Made by a program: the position numbers and the translations under genes
In this document: positions 3,361-52,440 of the stretch, piece after piece
How the letters are laid out: each line of letters begins with the position of its first letter
Numbering within the stretch: the first letter of the stretch is position 1
The notes under the pieces: model-generated
Database searches by the model: none
Seen by the model: only the letters and a program-made list of their open reading frames with translations
What the model was told of the DNA's origin: nothing
NCBI GenBank assembly: GCA_964545795.1
Contig: CAZJGC010000003.1
Location: 738-64,737 of the forward strand
Origin: an uncultured archaeon
GTDB lineage: Archaea > Aenigmatarchaeota > Aenigmatarchaeia > Aenigmatarchaeales > DAIDAN01
Direction: 5' to 3'
Length of the DNA: 64,000 nt

Positions 3361-4065
3361 CTATGGAGTAGTTATTAATTTATTTATTTTTTTCAGCAGA
3401 CCACTGCCATATTGCGCTGCTTTTTTCGGTTTTTCCACAATCTCTTCAGGAATAACCATTCTTGCAACTTCCCTGAGAATATATTTTCTTATTCCATTGT
3501 TTATTTTCAGATTTAAAGGCAAAGAAAAGGCAAATTCAATTATTTCTTTATTAAGAAACGGCATAATTAACTTTTTTCTAAAATATTTTGCTATCTTAAC
3601 TTCAAAACTGTTTTTAACAAGCCTGTCATAATCTTTTTTCATCTCTTCTTCCTTATTTTCAATTCTCAAGTACTTTGCATAGCCGCCAAAAAGTTCATCT
3701 GCGCCAGCCCCCAAAACAATTGCTTCTTCCTCGCAACTCCCTGCCACAAAATATACCGGCAACAAATAAGAAAGCACAAAATTGTCATTAACCCCGACTA
3801 TGTTTGAAAGAGTATCTATGTGTTCTTTTATAGAACCCTCAACTTCTATCTCCCTAAGATTGAGCCTTAGTAATTTAGCAGAATGTTCTGCAGAAGCAAA
3901 ATCATGGCACCCCGGAACTCCTGCTGTATAAAGATTTACACTTGCTTTCTTTGATGCAAAAAATGCAACAACAGAGCTGTCAATGCCTCCTGAAAAAGCC
4001 ACAGCAACTTTATCAGGAAATTCCTGTTGTTTCAACAATTCAAGCAACCTTAGTTTATAGTCCAT
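3361..4065 (-). CDS. asparagine synthase-like PP-loop ATP pyrophosphatase (AsnB C-terminal domain family)
   Basis: PP-loop SGGIDSS motif and ELFGGY motif. Confidence 0.6.
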   Translation of the reverse strand: MDYKLRLLELLKQQEFPDKVAVAFSGGIDSSVVAFFASKKASVNLYTAGVPGCHDFASAEHSAKLLRLNLREIEVEGSIKEHIDTLSNIVGVNDNFVLSYLLPVYFVAGSCEEEAIVLGAGADELFGGYAKYLRIENKEEEMKKDYDRLVKNSFEVKIAKYFRKKLIMPFLNKEIIEFAFSLPLNLKINNGIRKYILREVARMVIPEEIVEKPKKAAQYGSGLLKKINKLITTP

Positions 4066-15660: not shown

Positions 15661-15975
15661 TTATTCCAGCAACTTCTCAATTTTTGCTTTCAATGCTTCT
15701 TTTCCACCGAAACCTATCATAGTGTCAACATGCTTTCCGTCTTTAAAGAACAGCACTGTTGGTATTGACATTATTCCAAATTTTGCTGTTGTTTGCGGAT
15801 TTTTGTCAACATCAAGTTTGCCAAACGAAACATTTTTTATTTCTTCTGACAACTCGTCTATTATAGGAGAAAGCATTTTGCAAGGACCGCACCAGTCTGC
15901 GTAACAGTCAAGAACCACATTGCCTTTTTTTATAAATTCCTCAAGATTAGAGTCATTCACAGTTTCAACAGCCAT
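15661..15975 (-). CDS. trxA: thioredoxin
   Basis: WCGPC active site; 104 aa. Confidence 0.9.
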   Translation of the reverse strand: MAVETVNDSNLEEFIKKGNVVLDCYADWCGPCKMLSPIIDELSEEIKNVSFGKLDVDKNPQTTAKFGIMSIPTVLFFKDGKHVDTMIGFGGKEALKAKIEKLLE

Positions 15976-15979
15976 TTAT

Positions 15980-17242
15980 TCACCCCTCTTTTTTATTATT
16001 ATCAATTGTTTTATATTTATTTATGCATTCATTCAAATCATCTATGGCAAACAACAACGGATTTTTCTGTCCCTTTATTTTTTCCCATGTATCTTTTTTC
16101 AGGCAGATTTTTAGCGGAATTTTCAGTTTTTTGCATGCCTTTTCCAGAGCAAAAAATGTTTCACTTGGCTTTAAAAAGCAAAAATATTTTTTGTATTTTT
16201 GGCTTCTCAAATAGTTTTCAACCCTTTTTGCAGTAATTTTAATATAAAGTTTTTTTATTTCTTCTGTCTCTTCCCATTCAGGCCAGTCATAATTTGCAAA
16301 CGGATATTTTCCTGAGAATTCATAAGGTATTACTCCAGGAGAACTTATTACAACAATATGAAAATTTTTAGGAACCAATTTCAGAATTTCTTTGTGCAAT
16401 CTTGATCTTGAATATGGTTTTGTGTATGTGCATGGAACAAATAAAACATAATTTTTTTCTTTCGGTCTTTCATAAAATCTGCAGAAATAATCCTGCCATA
16501 CTTCAAAGTGCGGGTGCAGCAATTCATTTTTTGTCGCTCCTCTTATCTGTTCCTGCTTGTTTTTTGGAATTCTTGGAACAAATGCAAAATTGTCAAAATC
16601 AGTTTCCACATTCTTGAAAGGTTTCACTGTTTTCTCAAACTGTTTTTTATCAAGAGGTTTCCACTTTCCTTTTATCCAGAGTTCATATATAGGGGCAAGA
16701 GAGTGCGGAAATGTGTTTATAAGAACAATTTCATCTGAATATTTTCTTGCAAAATCAACAGATTTTTTCAGGTTGTTTTTAAATGGTAAACCAACCATCA
16801 AATAAGTTCTTAACTTGCAGTTATTTCTCTTCAATACCTTTGCCGCCCTGATATAATCTTCTGTTGTAAAACCTTTGTTGTATTTTTTTAATACCTCGTT
16901 GTCCGCAGACTCCAGACCTATTGCTACAGTCAGTTTTGTTTGCGAAAAATCTTTCAGGTTTTCATCTGTTATAAATTCCGGTCTTGATTCAATTGTGAGT
17001 TCAATGCCTTTGCATTTTCCTGCAAGATATTTTCTTATTGTTCTCGGAAATTGATTGTCATCAAGAAACGAACCGGATGCAAACACCTTTAGTTTTTTAA
17101 ATTTGTTTTTTCTGAAGAAATTGTCTATTTCTTTTTTAAGTTCATGAATTGATTTCTTTCTTGCTTCCATTCTTCCCCATCCGCAGGCAAAACATTTTCC
17201 CCAAGAGCATTTTCCGCTGTTTAAAATCAAGATTTTTTCCAT
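15980..17242 (-). CDS. archaeosine-pathway protein: N-terminal radical-SAM-like domain (RaSEA-type) fused to an ArcS-type C-terminal domain with the PC-X3-KPY motif
   Basis: N-terminal Cys cluster CSWGKCFAC and a radical-SAM-like core (IGLESADNEVL). C-terminal VPCTYTKPY matches the ArcS PC-X3-KPY signature. arcTGT is 3 kb away. Confidence 0.45.
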   Translation of the reverse strand: MEKILILNSGKCSWGKCFACGWGRMEARKKSIHELKKEIDNFFRKNKFKKLKVFASGSFLDDNQFPRTIRKYLAGKCKGIELTIESRPEFITDENLKDFSQTKLTVAIGLESADNEVLKKYNKGFTTEDYIRAAKVLKRNNCKLRTYLMVGLPFKNNLKKSVDFARKYSDEIVLINTFPHSLAPIYELWIKGKWKPLDKKQFEKTVKPFKNVETDFDNFAFVPRIPKNKQEQIRGATKNELLHPHFEVWQDYFCRFYERPKEKNYVLFVPCTYTKPYSRSRLHKEILKLVPKNFHIVVISSPGVIPYEFSGKYPFANYDWPEWEETEEIKKLYIKITAKRVENYLRSQKYKKYFCFLKPSETFFALEKACKKLKIPLKICLKKDTWEKIKGQKNPLLFAIDDLNECINKYKTIDNNKKEG

Positions 17243-17942
17243 GTTGTTAATTGTATTTTATTGTTTTATAAGAGTTGCGGGCAATATTTTTAGTATGCAG
17301 ATAGGCAGAATATTAAATAAACTGAAAAGAGAGGTTCTTTCTTGCAACATTCCTGCAGTTGATTTGGTGTGCATGAAAACAGCAGACCCTTACAAAACGC
17401 TTGTAACAGCAATTCTTTCTGCGCGCACAAAAGATGAAACAACATTGTCTGCTGCCAGAAGACTGTTTTTAAAAGCCAAGAATTTATGCATGTTGGAAAA
17501 ACTAAAAGTTAGAGATATTGAAAAGTTAATTTATCCTGTTGGTTTCTATAAAAACAAAGCAAGGGCTTTGAAGCAAATGCCTAAAATCATTAATAAGAAT
17601 TTTAATGGAAAAATTCCTGATACATTTGAAAATCTGATAGAACTTCCCGGAGTTGGGAGAAAAACAGCCAATCTTGTTTTGGCAGTATCTTTTAATAAAC
17701 ATGCTATTTGTGTTGATACTCATGTTCACAGGATAATGAACAGAATAGGATATGTAAAAACAGAAACTCCGCATGAAACAGAGATTGAGTTAAGAAAAAA
17801 ATTGCCTAAAAAATACTGGAGAAGTATAAATTCAATTCTTGTCGCTTTTGGCCAGAACATATGCAGACCTGTTTCTCCGTTTTGCAGCAAATGCGTTATA
17901 AGAAAATATTGCAATAAAGTTGGGGTTAAGAGGCGCAGGTGA
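17241..17942 (+). CDS. nth: endonuclease III (HhH-GPD glycosylase with [4Fe-4S] cluster)
   Basis: LPGVGRKTANLVL HhH-GPD motif and C-x6-C-x2-C-x5-C cluster (CRPVSPFCSKCVIRKYC). The true start is probably the internal MQIGRIL at about 17298. Confidence 0.85.
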   Translation: MLLIVFYCFIRVAGNIFSMQIGRILNKLKREVLSCNIPAVDLVCMKTADPYKTLVTAILSARTKDETTLSAARRLFLKAKNLCMLEKLKVRDIEKLIYPVGFYKNKARALKQMPKIINKNFNGKIPDTFENLIELPGVGRKTANLVLAVSFNKHAICVDTHVHRIMNRIGYVKTETPHETEIELRKKLPKKYWRSINSILVAFGQNICRPVSPFCSKCVIRKYCNKVGVKRRR

Positions 17943-18555
17943 GCAAATGAACGCACTTGTTAAAAGAGTAGAAAGGCTGAAAAATAAAAATGTAAGAAAA
18001 TTAATAGATGAGAGAATAAATGAATTTAGAAAAATTGGCAGGAAAACATATAAAGAAATATTTGTTGAACTTTGTTTCTGCATTTTAACGGCGAATTTTA
18101 ATGCTGAAAAAACAATATTGATTCAGGAAAAAATAGGGGACGGTTTTTTAACGCTTTCTCAACGCCAACTTGCAAAAAAATTAAAAAATCTCGGTTACCG
18201 TTATCCCAATATCAGGGCAAGGTATATCGTTGAAGCAAGAAAACATGATTTAATGAAAATTCTAAAAACCAAAAACCCGAGAAAAACGCTTGTTGAAAAT
18301 GTGAAAGGCATTGGTTGCAAAGAGGCAAGTCATTTTTTAAGAAACATTGGGTATGAAAATTTTGCTATATTGGATTTTCATATACTTGATATTCTTGCAA
18401 GGCATGGTTTAATAAAACCTGTAAAAGTTTTGTCAAAGAAAAAATATATTAAGATAGAAGAAAAACTTAAGAAAATTGCATGTAAACTAAATCTGACTTT
18501 GGCTGAACTTGATTTGTATTTATGGTATCTTGAGACAGGCAGAGTGTTGAAATAA
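17920..18555 (+). CDS. ogg: Ogg2-type 8-oxoguanine DNA glycosylase/AP lyase
   Basis: HhH-GPD with VKGIGCKEASHFLRNIG and DFHIL (catalytic K/D). Overlaps the nth stop by 23 nt. Confidence 0.6.
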   Translation: MGLRGAGEQMNALVKRVERLKNKNVRKLIDERINEFRKIGRKTYKEIFVELCFCILTANFNAEKTILIQEKIGDGFLTLSQRQLAKKLKNLGYRYPNIRARYIVEARKHDLMKILKTKNPRKTLVENVKGIGCKEASHFLRNIGYENFAILDFHILDILARHGLIKPVKVLSKKKYIKIEEKLKKIACKLNLTLAELDLYLWYLETGRVLK

Positions 18556-18613: not shown

Positions 18614-19987
18614 ATGAAAAAAATACTTATTGCGTCTATTTTGGTTTTATTTATTCTTCCTGTTCTAGTTCATGCTCAAGTTGAACCAAAAATTAAAACC
18701 CTTGTTTTTGTTGGAAAAGGAATTGCAGTTTCTCCTAATGATCCATTAGACTTTAGAATGGTTAAGGCAGGCGTTGGCAGCGTAAAGGTTTCATTGGCGG
18801 GAGAAACAACTGAATTAAAAGTCGGAGTACTTATTCTTGACGGAGAGAAATATAAATTAAAAAACATTGTAGATGATTCAGATGGCGGAGTTTCCGGTGA
18901 TGTTTACAGAAACAATTCGCGGGTTGGCTCGTTTTCTGTTTCATCAGTTTTAAAAGATGATATAACTGTATGGGCTGGCAAATTAGAAGTAAATGGAGAG
19001 ACATTCAATCTCTATATATTAGAGGCATCAAGAAAAGCAAGACCTGATGAAATAAGAGAGAAAATATCTGATTATTGCAAAGCCAATAAAAATGACCCTA
19101 ATTGCAGGCAGAGAATGGCTGAATATTGCAAAAACAATTTAGATGATTCCAGATGCAAAGAGATTTTTAGAAGATATTGCAAAAACAATTTAGATGATTC
19201 CAGATGCAGAGAGTATATTAGGAGTTACTGTGATAAAAATCCTGAAATAGAAGATTGCAGGGTTTTTGTTGTAAAGAGGACGGCTAAATTCTGCAAGGAG
19301 CATCCAAATTCAGAACATTGTATAGAGATAGAAAAAAGATTGGTTGAATGGTGCTTGAAAAACCCTCAAACACAGAGATGCAAGAAGTTCTGTTCAGAAC
19401 ATCCAAAGAAATGTTTGAAGGTTGTTAAAAGTCTTGCAGACTTTTGTATGGAAAATCCGGAAAATAAACATTGTGTGAGATATTGCAAAGAACATCCTGT
19501 AGCATGCAAGAAGTTAGCAAAGAATTTGGTTGAATTGTGTGCAAAGAATCCTGATAGCACAAAATGTATTGACTATTGCAAGGAGCATCCTGTAGCATGC
19601 AAAAAAGTGACGGCTGAGTTAGCAAACTTTTGTATTGGAAGGGAAAACAATCCAAGATGCGTGAGTTTTTGCAAAGAACATGAAAACGCTTGTAAGAAAG
19701 TTTCCATAGAGTTGGAAGGTTATTGCGCTAAACACGCAGACACATTGGCATGCAAGCGATTTTGTGAAAAATTCCCGGAAAAATGCAAAGTTGCAAAGCC
19801 AGTTGAAGTTGAGATAGAAGGAAAGGATACAAGCGTATTGGCAGGCGAAACAAAACAGGTTGAGCAAAACACAGGTGAAACAGACGTAATAACCACGGCA
19901 ACAGGTAACAGCACAACGGTTGAGTCTGCAGGCGAAGCAGAAAAGACAACAGCAGAACATACAATAGAAACAAACGGTGGGGAGTAA
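18614..19987 (+). CDS. secreted cysteine-rich repeat protein: signal peptide, beta-rich domain, about 17 C-x8/10-C repeats, Thr/Glu-rich tail
   Basis: Signal peptide MKKILIASILVLFILPVLVHA. Repeats are YCKNNLDDSRCKEIFRR-like, with about 34 Cys. C-terminal TTATGNSTTVESAGEAEKTTAE tail. Confidence 0.6.
   Translation: MKKILIASILVLFILPVLVHAQVEPKIKTLVFVGKGIAVSPNDPLDFRMVKAGVGSVKVSLAGETTELKVGVLILDGEKYKLKNIVDDSDGGVSGDVYRNNSRVGSFSVSSVLKDDITVWAGKLEVNGETFNLYILEASRKARPDEIREKISDYCKANKNDPNCRQRMAEYCKNNLDDSRCKEIFRRYCKNNLDDSRCREYIRSYCDKNPEIEDCRVFVVKRTAKFCKEHPNSEHCIEIEKRLVEWCLKNPQTQRCKKFCSEHPKKCLKVVKSLADFCMENPENKHCVRYCKEHPVACKKLAKNLVELCAKNPDSTKCIDYCKEHPVACKKVTAELANFCIGRENNPRCVSFCKEHENACKKVSIELEGYCAKHADTLACKRFCEKFPEKCKVAKPVEVEIEGKDTSVLAGETKQVEQNTGETDVITTATGNSTTVESAGEAEKTTAEHTIETNGGE
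19124..19225 (+). repeat. 51-bp tandem duplication (2 units) inside the Cys-rich protein gene
   Basis: 19124-19174 and 19175-19225 are identical over the first 34 nt and then diverge. They encode the duplicated YCKNNLDDSRC(K/R)E unit. Confidence 0.8.
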
Positions 19988-20240: not shown

Positions 20241-21944
20241 ATGTTATTTGAAGTTGTTGACAGGGATGCTGCAGGCAGGATTGGGAAATTAAAGATAGGA
20301 AAATATAAAATTAAAACCCCTAATATAGCGGTTGTAATAAATCCCAATAAGATGGTTGTGCCTATAAAAGAATTGAAAAAAATGGGAGTTGAAATAATAA
20401 TTACAAATTCTTATATAATAAACAATAATCCTGAAATCAGAGAGAAAGTGTTGGAAACAGGTTTGCACAAATTTTTTGGTTGGGACGGCCCAATTTACAC
20501 AGATTCTGGAACATATCAGATGTATTCGCGGAACATAAAAGACATTTCGCAAACGCAGATTCTGGAATTTCAAAGAACAATTGGTTCTGATATTATAACT
20601 CCTGTTGATGTTTTCACAACGCCGTTTGATTCAAAACCTGAAGCAAGAAAGAAATTAGAGGAGACAATAAAAAGAGTAAAAACAGCGAGAAAGACAGTGA
20701 AAACTGACCTTGTTGGGCCCATACAGGGAGGAAGTTTTATTGATTTAAGAAAAAAGGCTTGCAGAGAAATAGAAAAGGCGGGTGTTGATGTTTTTGCAGT
20801 AGGCGGCATTGTGCCATATATGGAATCTTATAAATTCACTGAATTATGCGAAACAATAATAACATGCAAGCAGTCGCTTCCTTCAAACAAGCCTGTTCAC
20901 GCTTTTGGAGCAGGGCATCCTATGGTTTTTTCGTTGCTTGTTGCATGCGGGTGCGACTTGTTTGATTCAGCTATGTATTCTTTGGCAGCAGGCAGAAATT
21001 CATATTTGACTGCAAGCGGCACAATGCATCTGGAAGATTTAGCGGAATTTCCATGTTCATGTCCTGCATGCATTAAAACAACACCATCTGAAGTAAAGAG
21101 AATGCAAAAGGAGGATAGACAGCAATTTCTTGCAAAACATAACCTATTTTCAACAATGCAAGAGTTAAAAACAGTTAGAAACGCGATTTCAAATAATAAT
21201 TTATGGGAACTTGTGCAGAGGCGTTCTTCTTCAAATCCAAGACTTTTTGAGGCATTTTTAACAATTTTAAAGAAGTATAAAGATTATTTTTTAGAGAAAG
21301 ACGTTTTCGGTAAGAAATCAGCTTTTGTATATAATAGTGAGGCATCAAAGTATAGGCCAGAGGTTTTTAAAGCAAAAGAAAGAATAAAAAATGTTAAATC
21401 AAAGAAATATTTCAAAAAAGAACCTTTTGGTAAAATACCTTACGAATTATACTTTGTCTATCCTTTTTATCAAAGCATTATACCTTTTTATAACGAGAAA
21501 AAACATGTGAAAATAGATGTTAAAGATATGATTAGAGCGGTTCTAGATTATCAATTTGGAAAAGGAACAAATGATAGAATAAAAGAATTTGAGGTAGAAA
21601 AATCAAGAAAAACAGGCATTATAAGGAGAATTTATCATAAAAACAAACTTATAGGCACTTTGAGGTCTTGGGATAATTTTCTTTTGCCAAGTATTTATGG
21701 CGCTGAATTATTAAAGATAAAAAAAGTTGTTGTAAAAGATAGGGATGCTGCCGAGTTTGTAAGCAAGGGCAGTGATTTGTTGGCAAAATTTGTTTATAAG
21801 GCAGATAAAATAATGCCTGGGGAGGAAGTTGCCGTGAAATATAAAAAGAAGATAATAGCTGTTGGCAGGGCATTGCTGAACTATAAGGAAATGAAGGAAT
21901 TTAATTATGGTGTTGCTGTAAAAGTGAGAAACCATATAAAATAA
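20241..21944 (+). CDS. tgtA: archaeosine tRNA-guanine transglycosylase (ArcTGT) with C-terminal PUA domain
   Basis: N-terminus MLFEVVDRDAAGRIGKLKIG is typical of ArcTGT; 567 aa matches TGT plus C1/C2/PUA. Confidence 0.85.
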   Translation: MLFEVVDRDAAGRIGKLKIGKYKIKTPNIAVVINPNKMVVPIKELKKMGVEIIITNSYIINNNPEIREKVLETGLHKFFGWDGPIYTDSGTYQMYSRNIKDISQTQILEFQRTIGSDIITPVDVFTTPFDSKPEARKKLEETIKRVKTARKTVKTDLVGPIQGGSFIDLRKKACREIEKAGVDVFAVGGIVPYMESYKFTELCETIITCKQSLPSNKPVHAFGAGHPMVFSLLVACGCDLFDSAMYSLAAGRNSYLTASGTMHLEDLAEFPCSCPACIKTTPSEVKRMQKEDRQQFLAKHNLFSTMQELKTVRNAISNNNLWELVQRRSSSNPRLFEAFLTILKKYKDYFLEKDVFGKKSAFVYNSEASKYRPEVFKAKERIKNVKSKKYFKKEPFGKIPYELYFVYPFYQSIIPFYNEKKHVKIDVKDMIRAVLDYQFGKGTNDRIKEFEVEKSRKTGIIRRIYHKNKLIGTLRSWDNFLLPSIYGAELLKIKKVVVKDRDAAEFVSKGSDLLAKFVYKADKIMPGEEVAVKYKKKIIAVGRALLNYKEMKEFNYGVAVKVRNHIK

Positions 21945-23372: not shown

Positions 23373-25691
23373 ATGAAAGCTGTAGTTAACGGTATTAATA
23401 AAAAAATAATAGAGGATTTTTCTATATCTGATAAAAGAAGCATAAATTTCTGGATATCAAGGTTGGAGAAATATTCAAAAAGCAAAGTTGTTTCTGCCTG
23501 TTTAAAGGTTGGTGTTGACAGGGAAATTGCTGAAGAAATAGCAGACAATGTTGACAGGTACTGCGATGAAAGTATGAAAATGTCTGAAGTAAGGCCTTTA
23601 ATATTTGCGTTTCTGAGCAAAAAAGATGCTGCTGCGGCAAGGAGATTCAGGGCAGGAGAAATATATGTAAGGACATCATCAGAAAACTATGAAAAATTTG
23701 ACAGAAGAAAAATTGTGAAATCTTTGTTAAGAGAAACAGCTATAAGCGAAAAAGACGCTGAATATATATCAGTTGAGACAGAAAAATTTATACGTGCGGC
23801 AAATCTGGATTACATATCTTCGTCTCTTCTAAGGGAGATAGTTAATATAAAACTTCTTGAGTATGGTTTTGAGGACATACATTCTGATTATACAAGAATA
23901 GGAAAGCCTGTTTATGATATAACACAATTAATAAACATAGGAGACAATGAAAATGCAAATTTGCAGTATAATCCAGAAACAATACATAAGCTTATAGCCG
24001 ATAATGTTTTGCGCGAATATGCGCTTACAAAAGCAGTGCCAAGGCATGCTGCAGATGCCCATCTGCGCGGCATAATACATATTCATGACATGGATTACTT
24101 TGTTCTTCGTCCCTTCTGTTTTTCGCATGATTTGCGTTTCTTTCTAAAAAATGGCTATAAGGCAGATGGTCAAGGAATACATACAGCAGCAGCAGGTCCT
24201 GCAAAACATGCTTCTGTTGCTATACTTCATGCAGCCAAAATATTGGCAAGCGCTCAGACAAACTGCGGAGGAGGTCAGGGATTCAACTGGTTTAATGTGC
24301 TGCTTGCTCCATATTTGAAAGGAATGAATTACAAACAAATGAAACAAATGGCTCAAATGTTTCTTTTTGAGATGTCGCAAATGTATGTGGCAAGAGGCGG
24401 ACAGACAGTTTTCTCTTCAATAAACATAGAGCCGGGAGTTCCTAAGGTTCTTGAAGATGTGCCTGCTGTTCTTCCCGGAGGCGTTACAGGGAAAGACACT
24501 TATGCAGATTATTATGATGAAATAAACCAGTTTTTCAGGGCTTTTATAGATGTTTACACTGAAGGAGACGCTTATGGAAAGTTGTTTAATTTTCCAAAAT
24601 GCGAGGTTAAAGTTTCAAAGAAGGACTTTTCCAAACATAGAGAAGAAATGGAGATGGTGTCAAAACTTGCTGCAAAGTTCGGAACTCCGTATTATTTCAT
24701 ACAACAGGATTATATGCCGGAATACAGTTGTTATCAGTGTTGCGCATATCTTATGCCCTTGAGCGAGCAGAATACTGATAATGATCTGTATAATGGAACA
24801 ACGCGCGGCGGAGCTTTGCAGGTAGTTACAATAAACCTGCCAAGAATAGGTTATGATGCAAAAGGGGATGATGATAAGTTATATGAATTGTTAAGAGAAA
24901 GAATGAATATAGCAAAGGATGTTTTGCTTGCAAAGAGGGAAATAATAAAAAAGAGAATGAAACAGGGATTGTTGCCGTTCTTGTCTCAAAGCATAGATGA
25001 TAAAGGAACCCCATATCTTGTTGTAGACAAACAGAGTTTGGAGATAGGCATGGTTGGTTTGAATGAAATGCTTCAGGCGCATACAGGTCATGAACTGCAT
25101 GAGGGTGTTTTGGAATTTGGTCTTAAATTTATTAAGAAAATGACTGATATAGCAAGGGAATTCTCTGAAGAAACAGGCCTTAAATTTGTTGTTTCAAGAA
25201 CTCCTGCAGAGTCAGCGGCTTATAGATTGGCTTCTCTTGACATGAAAGAGTATAATGGAAAGGCTATTGTTCAAGGTGACAAAGAAAAGAAGTCTGTATA
25301 TTATACAAATGGCAACCATGTTCGCCCGTCTGCTGACGTGCCTCTTATAGAGAGAGTTAAAATAGAAGCATCTTTCTCGCCTTTGCTTATGGGAGGGACA
25401 ATGTCCCATATATGGCTTGGCGAAGCAAACCCCAGCGCAGAGGCTCTTACAAAGTTTACTGAGAATATAACAAAGAAGACGCTTATGGGATACTTTGCAT
25501 ATACAAAGGATATGACTGTATGCAAAAACTGCATGTTTGTGGCTCCCAACATGCTTAAAACTTGTCCTAAGTGCAATAGCAGCAATGTAGACTGGTATTC
25601 AAGAATAACAGGGTATTATCAGAAAGTATCAGGCTGGAATGCAGGAAAATTGCAGGAACTCTATGACAGGCGCAGATATACTGTTTCATAA
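23373..25691 (+). CDS. nrdD: anaerobic ribonucleoside-triphosphate reductase (class III RNR)
   Basis: C-terminal glycyl-radical region SRITGYYQKV, preceded by a Cys4 zinc ribbon (CKNCMF...CPKCNS); 772 aa. Confidence 0.85.
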   Translation: MKAVVNGINKKIIEDFSISDKRSINFWISRLEKYSKSKVVSACLKVGVDREIAEEIADNVDRYCDESMKMSEVRPLIFAFLSKKDAAAARRFRAGEIYVRTSSENYEKFDRRKIVKSLLRETAISEKDAEYISVETEKFIRAANLDYISSSLLREIVNIKLLEYGFEDIHSDYTRIGKPVYDITQLINIGDNENANLQYNPETIHKLIADNVLREYALTKAVPRHAADAHLRGIIHIHDMDYFVLRPFCFSHDLRFFLKNGYKADGQGIHTAAAGPAKHASVAILHAAKILASAQTNCGGGQGFNWFNVLLAPYLKGMNYKQMKQMAQMFLFEMSQMYVARGGQTVFSSINIEPGVPKVLEDVPAVLPGGVTGKDTYADYYDEINQFFRAFIDVYTEGDAYGKLFNFPKCEVKVSKKDFSKHREEMEMVSKLAAKFGTPYYFIQQDYMPEYSCYQCCAYLMPLSEQNTDNDLYNGTTRGGALQVVTINLPRIGYDAKGDDDKLYELLRERMNIAKDVLLAKREIIKKRMKQGLLPFLSQSIDDKGTPYLVVDKQSLEIGMVGLNEMLQAHTGHELHEGVLEFGLKFIKKMTDIAREFSEETGLKFVVSRTPAESAAYRLASLDMKEYNGKAIVQGDKEKKSVYYTNGNHVRPSADVPLIERVKIEASFSPLLMGGTMSHIWLGEANPSAEALTKFTENITKKTLMGYFAYTKDMTVCKNCMFVAPNMLKTCPKCNSSNVDWYSRITGYYQKVSGWNAGKLQELYDRRRYTVS

Positions 25692-25697
25692 GGGCAT

Positions 25698-25745
25698 GTG
25701 AACATGTGAACAACACGTGAACATAACGTGAAATTTGACGTGAAG
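25698..25745 (+). repeat. iteron-like array: 5 direct GTGAA(C) repeats at 8-12-bp spacing
   Basis: catGTGAACatGTGAACaacacGTGAACataacGTGAAAtttgacGTGAAG, immediately after the nrdD stop codon. Confidence 0.85.
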
Positions 25746-25791
25746 TAAAACTTTAAAAGTTTGTATTTTCATAATTTAGAAAGGTGATAGA

Positions 25792-26061
25792 ATGGGTAAG
25801 ATAACAATATTTACTTCAAAGACATGCACAAAATGCCCCCAAGCCAAAGCAATTGTTGAGGATGTTGCTAAAGAGATCGGGTGCGAAGTTGAATATGTTG
25901 ATATTGAAAAAGAGCTTTTTAGGGCTCTTGAAAATCAGATAGCCACTGTACCTTCTGTTATGGTTAATGGAATTATTGTATCAAGAGGGGAAATACCTAA
26001 AAAAGAGGATATATTATCAGTTCTTAATGGAAGTGAATGTTCACGTGAACAAAAAGAATAA
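25792..26061 (+). CDS. glutaredoxin-like/NrdH-like redoxin
   Basis: Thioredoxin fold with a CTKC active-site motif. The C-terminal codons (SREQKE) are encoded by the first GTGAA repeats of the next array. Confidence 0.55.
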   Translation: MGKITIFTSKTCTKCPQAKAIVEDVAKEIGCEVEYVDIEKELFRALENQIATVPSVMVNGIIVSRGEIPKKEDILSVLNGSECSREQKE

Positions 26062-26144
26062 TTGTGAACAAAATGTGAACAACACGTGAACTTAATATAA
26101 ACTTCACGTGAACTTGTGAATATTCACGTGAAGGTGTCGTGAAA
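26033..26144 (+). repeat. iteron-like array: 9-10 direct GTGAA(C/T/G/A) repeats phased at 11 (or 22) bp, including the 12-bp palindrome GTTCACGTGAAC
   Basis: Repeat starts at 26033, 26045, 26064, 26075, 26086, 26108, 26117, 26128 and 26139. The array sits between the NrdH-like gene and nrdG. Confidence 0.85.
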
Positions 26145-26863
26145 TGGAACATAAAAAATTAAAGATTGGCGGAATACTAGATATTTCTACAATAGATTAT
26201 CCAGGCAAACTCACATCTGTTATTTTTCTTCATGGTTGTAATTTCAGATGTCCATTTTGTTTTAACCCTGAACTTGTGCTAGGAAAACCTTCACGTGAAC
26301 TTCACGTGAAAGAAATAATTGAGAAAATAAGTAATTTCAGGGATTTTATAGATGCGGTAGTTATTACTGGCGGAGAGCCTACGTTGCAACCTCTTGAATT
26401 TTTATGTAAAGAACTTAGAAAAATTGGATTATTTGTAAAGATAGATACGAATGGTTCAAATCCTGATGTTATAGAAAATTTAATAAGAAAGGGGTTGATA
26501 GATTTTGTCGCTCTTGATATAAAAGCGCCTTTTAGCAAATATTCACGCGTGATTGGCAATGTGCGTGAACAAGACGTGAACAATATTAAAAAAACATTTG
26601 AGATGCTTTTGAATTTTGATATAGATTATGAATGTAGAACTCCTGTTGTTCCAAACGTGAATATGCAGCACATGCAGGAACTTGCAGAAGATGTGAAGCC
26701 ATCAAAAGTTTTTGTTCTTGAACAATTTAAATGTGAAAAAGGCACTTTGTCAGGAATAAAAGGCAGCATATCTCGTGAAGAACTTGTGAAAATAGCAAAA
26801 ATGTTCTCAAACAAAACAGTAAAGATAAGAACAGCAGAATCAGGCGAGGAAGTGGTAGCGTGA
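26144..26863 (+). CDS. nrdG: anaerobic RNR activating protein (radical SAM)
   Basis: CNFRCPFC radical-SAM cluster near the N-terminus. It contains three in-frame 11-bp-phased GTGAA pairs (26295/26306, 26565/26576, 26775/26786). Confidence 0.75.
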   Translation: MEHKKLKIGGILDISTIDYPGKLTSVIFLHGCNFRCPFCFNPELVLGKPSRELHVKEIIEKISNFRDFIDAVVITGGEPTLQPLEFLCKELRKIGLFVKIDTNGSNPDVIENLIRKGLIDFVALDIKAPFSKYSRVIGNVREQDVNNIKKTFEMLLNFDIDYECRTPVVPNVNMQHMQELAEDVKPSKVFVLEQFKCEKGTLSGIKGSISREELVKIAKMFSNKTVKIRTAESGEEVVA

Positions 26864-49120: not shown

Positions 49121-49666
49121 TTAGGGTGTAATTCTGACTATTTCAAAGTATACGACTTTATCATCTTTATCTACCAAAGCCCAGAGCATATGCGCTCTTA
49201 TGTTATGCGCAAGCCTGACTGCTCTGGAAAGTTCCTGAAAACCGCAGGAATAATTTTTTGGAACAGCAAAAACAATCCATTTTGTATGTTCTGCCGCGCT
49301 TTTTGGACCTCTTTTCAAAGGTTTTACTCCTTTATTATAGACGCGGAAGTCGCAGCCAAACTTGAATCCTGTTCTTGTTGGATATGATTTGTTTCTAAGG
49401 TCAGTGTAAACAATAAATCTTTCCCTGAATCTGTTGTCTATAGAGCAGCAATAATCAAAAAATTCATTAAATCCCATTTTTTTATTGTTGTTGTAAATTG
49501 TTATTTTCTTTTTTTTATATAGAAATGCTGCTTCCACAAGAGATAATTCAAGCCTGTCTTCTCTAAGCCTTCCATAATAATCATTTTCAAATATGTTTTT
49601 TGCTGCATTTCTGTCCCATATAAAAACCTTGTCCTGAGCAATCTGCGCTTTTATCATAATCATCAC
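49121..49666 (-). CDS. endA: tRNA-splicing endonuclease subunit (EndA family; retains the Tyr and His of the catalytic triad)
   Basis: YTDLRNKSYPTRTGFKFGCDFRVY...AEHTKWIVFAV...RLAHNIRAHMLWALVD matches the EndA catalytic-domain pattern. Confidence 0.8.
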   Translation of the reverse strand: MMIMIKAQIAQDKVFIWDRNAAKNIFENDYYGRLREDRLELSLVEAAFLYKKKKITIYNNNKKMGFNEFFDYCCSIDNRFRERFIVYTDLRNKSYPTRTGFKFGCDFRVYNKGVKPLKRGPKSAAEHTKWIVFAVPKNYSCGFQELSRAVRLAHNIRAHMLWALVDKDDKVVYFEIVRITP

Positions 49667-49669
49667 ATT

Positions 49670-50188
49670 TTATATCTTCAGTTCATTTACAGCATAATAA
49701 GTTATGTCTGTGTCGTTGTCTACAACTGCCCATAGCGCAGTTGTTTTAATGTTTTGTGAGAGTTTTGTTGCTCTCTCAAGCATGCTAAAATCCGAAGGAT
49801 AATCTTCAGATGCAACAAAAACTATCCATTTTACTTTTTCTGCTTTATTTGGTTTTGCACCCCTGTCATAAACCCGAAGGTCCATGCCTTTAAATCCGAC
49901 TCTGACGGGGAGCCCCCTTTCTCTCATGTCTTTATAAACATAATAAAGATTAGTGAAATTATTGATTTTTGAGCAGCAGTAGTGATAAAAGTCAGAGAAT
50001 GATAATTTCTTGTTTTTAATAAATACTTCAAGCCTTCCTCTTTCCTGCAAAAGAAGAGCTTCCACAAGAGATAATTCAAGATTTCCTGATTTTATGTTTC
50101 CATACCATCCGTTGTCAAAGTATTCTTTGCCTTCTTTATCTTCTACTATTACTTTTATGTCTTCAATTCTTCCTTGCATAGAATTCAC
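49670..50188 (-). CDS. tRNA-splicing endonuclease paralogous subunit (EndA family; the His position is substituted, so it is likely the structural partner)
   Basis: YKDMRERGLPVRVGFKGMDLRVY...KVKWIVFVAS...ALWAVVD. It is a paralogue of the adjacent gene, with a KAEKVKW segment in place of AEHTKW. Confidence 0.7.
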   Translation of the reverse strand: MNSMQGRIEDIKVIVEDKEGKEYFDNGWYGNIKSGNLELSLVEALLLQERGRLEVFIKNKKLSFSDFYHYCCSKINNFTNLYYVYKDMRERGLPVRVGFKGMDLRVYDRGAKPNKAEKVKWIVFVASEDYPSDFSMLERATKLSQNIKTTALWAVVDNDTDITYYAVNELKI

Positions 50189-52352: not shown

Positions 52353-52440
52353 TGGCGCCTGGGACAGGACTCGAACCTGCGACCACCTGGTTTCTGTATA
52401 AATTAACAGCCAGGTGCTCTACCTGCTGAGCTACCCAGGC
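52353..52440 (-). tRNA. tRNA-Asn (anticodon GUU) with a 12-nt canonical intron at 37/38; CCA is encoded
   Basis: Acceptor GCCUGGG/CCCAGGC, D-arm GCUC-AGCAGGUA-GAGC, anticodon stem CCUGG/CCAGG, anticodon GUU at 52405-52407, intron at 52392-52403, T-loop UUCGAGU. Confidence 0.85.

Follow-up and report, generated by a model that had tools for sequence, protein, structure and literature searches.

The 64,000-nucleotide stretch of DNA analysed here (the window; contig CAZJGC010000003.1 of an uncultured member of Aenigmatarchaeota) carries a complete gene for a 420-amino-acid (aa) protein in which a radical S-adenosylmethionine (SAM) core resembling that of RaSEA is followed by the C1 (DUF5591) catalytic core of ArcS. 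RaSEA and ArcS are the two subunits of the enzyme that forms archaeosine (G+) in transfer RNA (tRNA), and the gene for ArcTGT (TgtA), which carries out the upstream step by inserting preQ0 at tRNA position 15, is also present in the window (Table 1). An initial annotation, made from the DNA letters and their open reading frames (ORFs), had suggested that the protein is a fused ArcS-RaSEA enzyme, a proposal now supported by profile matches, by aligning the two halves with bona fide ArcS and RaSEA proteins, by a predicted structure and by gene context. The ORF has exactly the ends given there and lies on the minus strand with an ATG start. The public gene call for a 100%-identical protein (P0001; L001:1372-2562) is 396 aa long and begins at M25, leaving out the Cys triad. 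In an alignment of 25 homologues, which spans 48-71% identity, the N-terminus is conserved from residue 1-2 onward, so the start at 17242 is the correct one; judging from the P0001 call, N-terminal truncation may be frequent in automated gene calls for the family.

Table 1. Positions in the window of the fusion gene, its domains and motifs, and two genes near it.
Feature	Position	Strand	Basis
Fusion gene, complete, 420 aa	15980..17242	-	ORF list, ATG start, reading frame uninterrupted
Radical-SAM core, RaSEA-like, aa 5-196	16655..17230	-	TIGR01210, alignment with six RaSEA, Foldseek
[4Fe-4S]-binding Cys triad CSWGKCFAC (C12/C17/C20; Cx4Cx2C)	17183..17209	-	Homologue conservation, alignment with RaSEA triad
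Inter-domain linker, aa 197-223 (27 aa)	16574..16654	-	Stands in place of the RaSEA C-terminal four-Cys module
ArcS C1 (DUF5591) catalytic core, aa 224-382	16097..16573	-	PF17884, NF040592, 2Q07, phage nt-1 fold match
ArcS signature PC-x3-KPY-x2-S-x2-H, PCTYTKPYSRSRLH, aa 270-283	16394..16435	-	Family conservation
YDWPEWEET, aa 318-326, motif characteristic of the fusion family	16265..16291	-	Nearly invariant in family
arcTGT (TgtA), 567 aa, TGT/C1/C2/PUA domains	20241..21944	+	TIGR00432, Pfam
Thioredoxin gene	15661..15975	-	4 bp downstream of fusion gene; TIGR01068 116 bits, above cutoff of 96.8

The radical-SAM character of the N-terminal half, which the initial annotation had proposed, is borne out by two profiles: TIGR01210 (RaSEA), its top NCBIfam match (aa 5-196 on profile positions 18-229 of 313; 4.4e-32, 111.6 bits), and Pfam Radical_SAM (aa 20-156; 4.7e-15, above the gathering score). 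RaSEA is clearly the best profile when compared with those of Elp3 (TIGR01211; 51.9 bits, cutoff 350) and MnmL/YtqA (TIGR01212; 37.1 bits), the nearest radical-SAM relatives with solved structures, and both of these scores fall far short of the respective cutoffs. Alignment with six bona fide RaSEA, standalone proteins scoring above the TIGR01210 cutoff (296-358 bits) and found by exhaustively searching 1.84 billion representatives, gave 29-37% identity and 28 invariant core positions, among them C12, W14, C17, C20, G21, K52, SGSF 56-59, ESRP 85-88, GLE 109-111, NKG 122-124, R145, Y147 and PF 153-154. The claimed cluster CSWGKCFAC is present, at aa 12-20, and its three cysteines line up with the Cys triad of all six. 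Across the 25 homologues C20 is invariant and C12 and C17 are at least 90% conserved, and a Cx4Cx2C regular expression matches 114 of the 120 listed family proteins, several of the remaining six being N-terminally short calls or fragments (P0001, P0053, P0060 and P0115).

It had been suggested that this Cx4Cx2C spacing, in place of Cx3Cx2C, might prove incompatible with a radical-SAM fold. The objection is invalid because the same spacing occurs in six proteins above the TIGR01210 cutoff (P0152, P0171, P0197, P0199, P0215 and P0227; 262-345 bits) and in archaeal Elp3 (PDB 6IAD), which reads KCPHGKCIFC; within bona fide RaSEA the spacing of the first Cys varies among Cx4, Cx7, Cx8 and Cx9, followed by Cx2C. 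Elp3 differs in the rest of its architecture, since its radical-SAM domain is followed by a C-terminal KAT/GNAT domain, whereas the fusion protein has no GNAT match and its C-terminal half is DUF5591.

The C-terminal half corresponds to the C1 domain of ArcS. Pfam DUF5591 (PF17884) matches aa 250-381 (5.9e-18; 65.6 bits, gathering score 26), NF040592 (ArcS) is the next NCBIfam match after RaSEA (aa 224-382 on profile positions 256-414 of 575; 2.2e-19), and comparison of this half with a 518-aa ArcS shows 33% identity to the C1 region of the latter. The PC-x3-KPY match proposed from the letters VPCTYTKPY, which lie at aa 269-277, is genuine on these profiles and forms part of the longer motif PCTYTKPYSRSRLH, which has the signature PC-x3-KPY-x2-S-x2-H defined for ArcS (PMC5699537, PMC10516641). 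Residues P270, C271, K275, P276, Y277 and S280 are invariant and H283 is at least 90% conserved in the 25 homologues, and the signature is matched in 116 of the 120 listed family proteins when Q for P and W or Y for H are allowed at its ends. In the YDWPEWEET motif, Y318, D319, W320, E322, E325 and T326 are likewise invariant. No TGT, TGT_C2 or PUA match was obtained in the fusion protein with Pfam or NCBIfam; the earlier statement that the TGT-like and PUA domains of ArcS are absent is therefore upheld, and the ArcS C2 domain is missing as well.

A side branch of the family, represented by P0133 and P0137, has a Cx3Cx2C triad (CPWDCYFCG) in the radical-SAM domain and has lost PC-x3-KPY from the C-terminal domain, P0133 reading LPESVRGSPTGS at the corresponding position. 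This branch may be neofunctionalised or degenerate.

The AlphaFold2 model, built on the 25-sequence alignment, has a mean predicted local distance difference test (pLDDT) score of 91.8 and a predicted template modelling (pTM) score of 0.85, and the protein is confidently predicted to form one compact body in which the two domains are packed against each other. Foldseek searches of this model against the PDB returned the radical-SAM enzymes Mmp10, MgmA, Elp3, MiaB, PFL-AE and viperin, together with the DUF5591 protein AF0587 (2Q07), which matches the fusion both by sequence (1.2e-10) and by fold (E 3e-6); neither the sequence nor the fold search of the PDB returned an ArcS-RaSEA structure, and the fold search gave no structure of ArcS or RaSEA. 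Among viral models, the best matches to the C-terminal domain were core-only DUF5591 proteins, including ArcS2 of Vibrio phage nt-1 (E 8e-9, TM 0.64 on the target). At the linker between the two domains, the homologue P0128 tolerates an insertion of about 210 aa.

The fusion belongs to a large conserved family, found mostly in DPANN archaea, and is no one-off. A word-indexed search returned 608 homologues; among the 120 listed, most have a length of 417-457 aa and nearly all contain both Pfam domains, and this size of the family together with its near-uniform length and domain content means that it is under selection as a unit. A scan for the YDWPEWEET stretch in one genome per GTDB species found relatives in at least 124 species genomes, a lower bound because the scan was pattern-based. 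The DPANN carriers are Aenigmatarchaeota, which hold the closest relatives (69% identity), Nanoarchaeota, Micrarchaeota, Parvarchaeota, Nanohaloarchaea, Altiarchaeota, Iainarchaeota and Woesearchaeota, and carriers beyond DPANN are Thermoproteota/Kor1 (Korarchaeia), Desulfurococcales and Methanomethylicota. Public names of these proteins are "DUF5591 domain-containing protein", "radical SAM protein" and, rarely, "archaeosine synthase alpha-subunit"; because such names are generic, pathway reconstructions for the lineages that carry the fusion miss the G+ step. The ArcS plus RaSEA system itself is already known. The stripped-down fused form and its dominance in DPANN are undescribed in the full-text literature that was searched, with the proviso that Yokogawa 2019 or its supplement may mention such fusions.

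The C1 core also occurs on its own in archaea. The protein P0140 (246 aa, DUF5591; L084:5825-6741) follows a 55-aa zinc-ribbon ORF, adjoins a ribosomal protein L10 gene and has no radical-SAM gene within 6 kb, so C1-only forms coexist with the fusion in this domain of life.

The gene that the initial annotation took for arcTGT is genuine, with a TIGR00432 score of 466 bits (cutoff 350) and all of the TGT, C1, C2 and PUA domains, and its linkage to the fusion gene is conserved across the family, beyond the source window. Of 81 loci, 30 have an ArcTGT orthologue (about 36-59% identity, 208-582 bits) no more than 10 kb from the fusion gene, as do half of the loci with full flanks (15 of 30), and when all ORFs within 4 kb were clustered without bias, ArcTGT proved to be the most frequent neighbour (26 of 80 loci). 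The neighbouring ArcTGT gene is usually upstream and divergent, with only 43-70 bp between the two genes in several loci; in the Thermoproteota loci L066 and L072 (isolate Kor1) it follows the fusion gene on the same strand at a distance of 224 bp. Apart from one weak, unrelated radical-SAM match in L070, tblastn detected no further gene for RaSEA, ArcS or DUF5591 in the 64-kb window or in 1.27 Mb of related loci (81 loci), and no QueF-like gene occurs in this DNA either.

In the known system, ArcS adds lysine to preQ0-tRNA and RaSEA converts the adduct to G+, the ArcS of T. kodakarensis showing activity only when complexed with RaSEA; once the lysine adduct has formed, reversal by ArcTGT is impossible (PMC11298593). 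Each half of the fusion matches a different subunit of this two-subunit enzyme, and the protein is probably a single-chain, minimal alpha-beta archaeosine synthase that would convert preQ0-tRNA to G+-tRNA via the lysine adduct, an interpretation drawn from its domains, motifs and gene context. In the proposed mechanism, ArcTGT, encoded 3 kb away and equipped with its own PUA domain, would place preQ0 at G15 of tRNA, and the C-terminal C1 domain would then join the epsilon-amino group of L-lysine, the presumed nitrogen donor, to the nitrile of preQ0, giving preQ0-Lys. The invariant Cys271 of PC-x3-KPY would probably attack this nitrile to form a thioimidate, as in QueF-type enzymes. The N-terminal radical-SAM domain would carry a [4Fe-4S] cluster on C12, C17 and C20 and cleave SAM reductively, and the resulting 5'-deoxyadenosyl radical would cleave the lysine adduct in a lyase step that leaves the formamidine group of archaeosine. 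Since ArcTGT would supply the position specificity, the TGT-like, C2 and PUA RNA-binding domains would be unneeded. It has been reported that ArcS accepts preQ0 nucleoside 5'-monophosphate (PMC11298593), so the tRNA L-shape and the RNA-binding domains are not chemically required.

Covalent fusion would thus substitute for the obligatory ArcS-RaSEA complex. As far as the T. kodakarensis complex (Yokogawa et al. 2019) is described in PMC11298593, it contains the same two catalytic modules, with an aligned Cys triad, and acts after ArcTGT as the fusion is proposed to do; the two activities are physically coupled in both, through an obligatory complex in one case and covalently in the other. The partnership with ArcS that is a feature of RaSEA is therefore present here as a covalent bond between the radical-SAM and C1 domains. 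The fusion is one chain of 420 aa, whereas ArcS-RaSEA has two separate chains, about 520-580 and 300-370 aa long, and the fusion lacks the TGT-like N-terminal domain, C2 and PUA as well as the RaSEA N-terminal extension and CxxC...CxC module. The hosts also differ, the fusion occurring mainly in DPANN and in some TACK archaea and the ArcS-RaSEA complex in Euryarchaeota. In a neighbour-joining tree, which is crude and has no outgroup, the fusion-type radical-SAM domains form a clade apart from standalone RaSEA with 69% bootstrap support.

A second fusion of the same two modules, in reverse order, bears on this interpretation. P0142 (680 aa; L082:4855-8043, also in L083) has a DUF5591-like half followed by a RaSEA-like half, the latter with a Cx3Cx2C triad and the C-terminal Cys module of RaSEA retained, and its radical-SAM domain falls on the standalone RaSEA side of the tree; P0142 is a fusion independent of the 420-aa family. 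It sits 16 bp downstream of a gene of the TGT superfamily (376 aa, PUA-less) whose best match is TgtA (96.8 bits, below the cutoff), with a weak match to DpdA, and the contig looks bacterial because RND efflux genes flank P0142. That the same pair of modules has been fused twice, each time beside a TGT gene, strongly indicates that they cooperate on a TGT product. The P0142 locus may represent a G+-type system from outside Archaea that targets tRNA or DNA.

Several observations weigh against this assignment. Both halves score below the NCBIfam equivalog cutoffs, the N-terminal half on TIGR01210 (111.6 bits against 212.15, with the profile only partly covered) and the C-terminal half on NF040592 (69.5 against 440 bits) and NF053620 (56.3 against 600). 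These low scores arise because large parts of each subunit are absent: in the alignment with the six RaSEA, neither the N-terminal extension of about 40 aa nor the C-terminal module of about 100 aa with four Cys (YRPPWLWS...HNCGxCD...CxC) has a counterpart in the fusion, and these two losses account for the TIGR01210 score. The four-Cys module could be essential for the lyase step; that it once served subunit docking or RNA binding and was then lost is speculation. No preQ0 biosynthesis genes were found in the window. Finally, phage ArcS2, which consists of the C1 core alone, gives dG+ in E. coli without RaSEA (PMC10516641), and the C1 core may consequently not always need a radical-SAM partner.

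The absence of the four-Cys module and the activity of ArcS2 also favour an explanation in which only one half is catalytic in G+ formation, the C1 domain amidating preQ0 directly with ammonia or glutamine while the radical-SAM half acts as a structural activator or in an unrelated reaction. The use of NH4+, Asn or Gln by the ArcS of M. jannaschii has been reported (PMC11298593), and the side-branch proteins P0133 and P0137 keep the radical-SAM half after losing PC-x3-KPY, so the two halves can evolve apart. This explanation is nevertheless unlikely, as the Cys triad and the core residues shared with RaSEA show little or no variation in the family, an indication that the radical-SAM site is active, and the RaSEA lineage has been fused to C1 twice, in both orders, which is hard to explain without coupled chemistry.

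It would also be possible, with only a slim likelihood, for the fusion to perform the same two chemistries on another substrate or towards another product, such as DNA (dG+), other RNAs, free preQ0 nucleotides or a different 7-deazaguanine derivative. The protein has no RNA-binding domain, ArcS accepts nucleotides in vitro (PMC11298593), the core-only viral DUF5591 proteins that its C-terminal domain matches best in fold include the DNA-acting ArcS2 of phage nt-1 (PMC10516641), and P0142 adjoins a divergent, PUA-less TGT on a bacterial-looking contig. Against such a role, the gene conserved beside the fusion gene encodes a full-length TgtA, complete with C1, C2 and PUA (466 bits), the enzyme of tRNA G15; the window showed neither a DpdA-type gene nor a phage context, and it holds a tRNA with G at position 15 and ordinary archaeal housekeeping genes. 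ArcS2 and core-only DUF5591 proteins (Vibrio phage nt-1 and Sulfolobus virus STSV2; PMC10516641) and AF0587 share with the fusion a C1 core without a TGT-like domain, but they carry no radical-SAM domain, and phage ArcS2 pairs with DpdA and acts on DNA whereas the fusion family pairs with full-length ArcTGT. Despite the nt-1 fold match, the fusion protein is thus distinct from ArcS2, a stand-alone C1 protein that works with DpdA on DNA.

An artefact, in the form of adjacent genes joined by a frameshift or assembly error or of chance motif matches, is suggested only by the different start codon of the automated P0001 call and has a negligible probability; it was rejected on the homologue search, the 25-member alignment and the genome scan, given that the ORF is uninterrupted, the same architecture recurs in hundreds of independent assemblies, the hidden Markov model E-values range from 1e-15 to 1e-32 and the single-body AlphaFold model is confident.

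If the fusion is a single-chain archaeosine synthase, it would account for the completion of G+ in DPANN archaea that have reduced genomes and an ArcTGT gene. A bolder proposal, tentative and with chances slightly short of even, is that it represents what archaeosine synthase truly needs, at a minimum, for catalysis and is the main former of G+ outside Euryarchaeota, that is, in DPANN, Korarchaeia, Methanomethylicota and some Thermoproteota. In that case the TGT-like, C2 and PUA domains of ArcS and the four-Cys module of RaSEA would all be dispensable, the preQ0-Lys intermediate would be channelled inside one polypeptide, and the position of P0142 next to a PUA-less TGT would imply lysine-adduct and radical-lyase chemistry beyond Archaea, perhaps with DNA as the substrate. 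Understanding of how archaeosine formation is completed is confined to the two-protein ArcS-RaSEA complex of Euryarchaeota, for which a structure and a defined radical mechanism were still lacking as of 2024 (PMC11298593). A natural fusion of the two catalytic cores in about 420 aa defines the essential parts of this enzyme, provides "Rosetta-stone" evidence for cooperation between ArcS C1 and RaSEA, and offers a tractable single-chain target for crystallography or cryo-electron microscopy of the coupled active sites.

The same step, preQ0 to G+, is carried out in Crenarchaeota by the alternative synthases QueF-L, which has a T-fold, and Gat-QueC, which combines PP-loop and GATase domains; both have folds unrelated to the fusion and use no radical chemistry, and no homologue of either was seen in the window. 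Two ORFs considered as preQ0 biosynthesis genes were rejected. The PP-loop ORF at 3361..4065 (-) is an asparagine-synthase-like domain and not QueC; it encodes a stand-alone protein of 234 aa that matches only the synthetase half of TIGR01536 (109 bits, below the cutoff) and has no glutaminase domain. The ORF at 26144..26863, considered as QueE, is NrdG and adjoins NrdD. Both belong to an anaerobic ribonucleotide reductase cluster at 23373..26863 (+), which comprises NrdD (772 aa), a small glutaredoxin-like ORF and the NrdG activase and indicates an anaerobic lifestyle, compatible with an oxygen-sensitive radical-SAM step in archaeosine synthesis.

The thioredoxin gene immediately downstream is probably co-transcribed with the fusion gene. 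A role as a dedicated general partner was rejected, as the two genes are adjacent in only 6 of 81 loci, namely those of the closest Aenigmatarchaeota relatives (L001-L004) and L025 and L027, where thioredoxin lies upstream of the fusion gene, and a link between thioredoxin and the archaeosine system is doubtful. The loci census found no other functionally suggestive conserved neighbours; M24 and M29 peptidases, a DnaG-type primase, LigT and others recur, and all of these look like lineage synteny.

Divergent from the fusion gene are two DNA glycosylase genes at 17241..17942 (+) and 17947..18555 (+), encoding an endonuclease III-like protein and a PRK01229-type N-glycosylase/DNA lyase. The first of them likely starts in reality at M19, which would leave a divergent intergenic region of about 52 bp, and the adjacency of glycosylase and fusion genes is not kept at other loci. 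Between the fusion gene and arcTGT lies an ORF at 18614..19987 (+); its 457-aa product has an N-terminus resembling a signal peptide, contains numerous Cys-rich repeats (C..HP..C, 'CKEHPVACKK') and had no match in Pfam or NCBIfam.

A tRNA gene at 52356..52440 (-), detected with Rfam (62.9 bits) and missed by ARAGORN, has G at position 15, the site of ArcTGT and archaeosine, and appears to be tRNA-Asn(GUU) with a 13-nucleotide intron after position 37. Nearby, two adjacent paralogous genes for tRNA-intron endonuclease at 49121..49663 (-) and 49670..50179 (-), each with N-terminal and catalytic domains, suggest a heteromeric splicing endonuclease, which fits the presence of this intron-containing tRNA.

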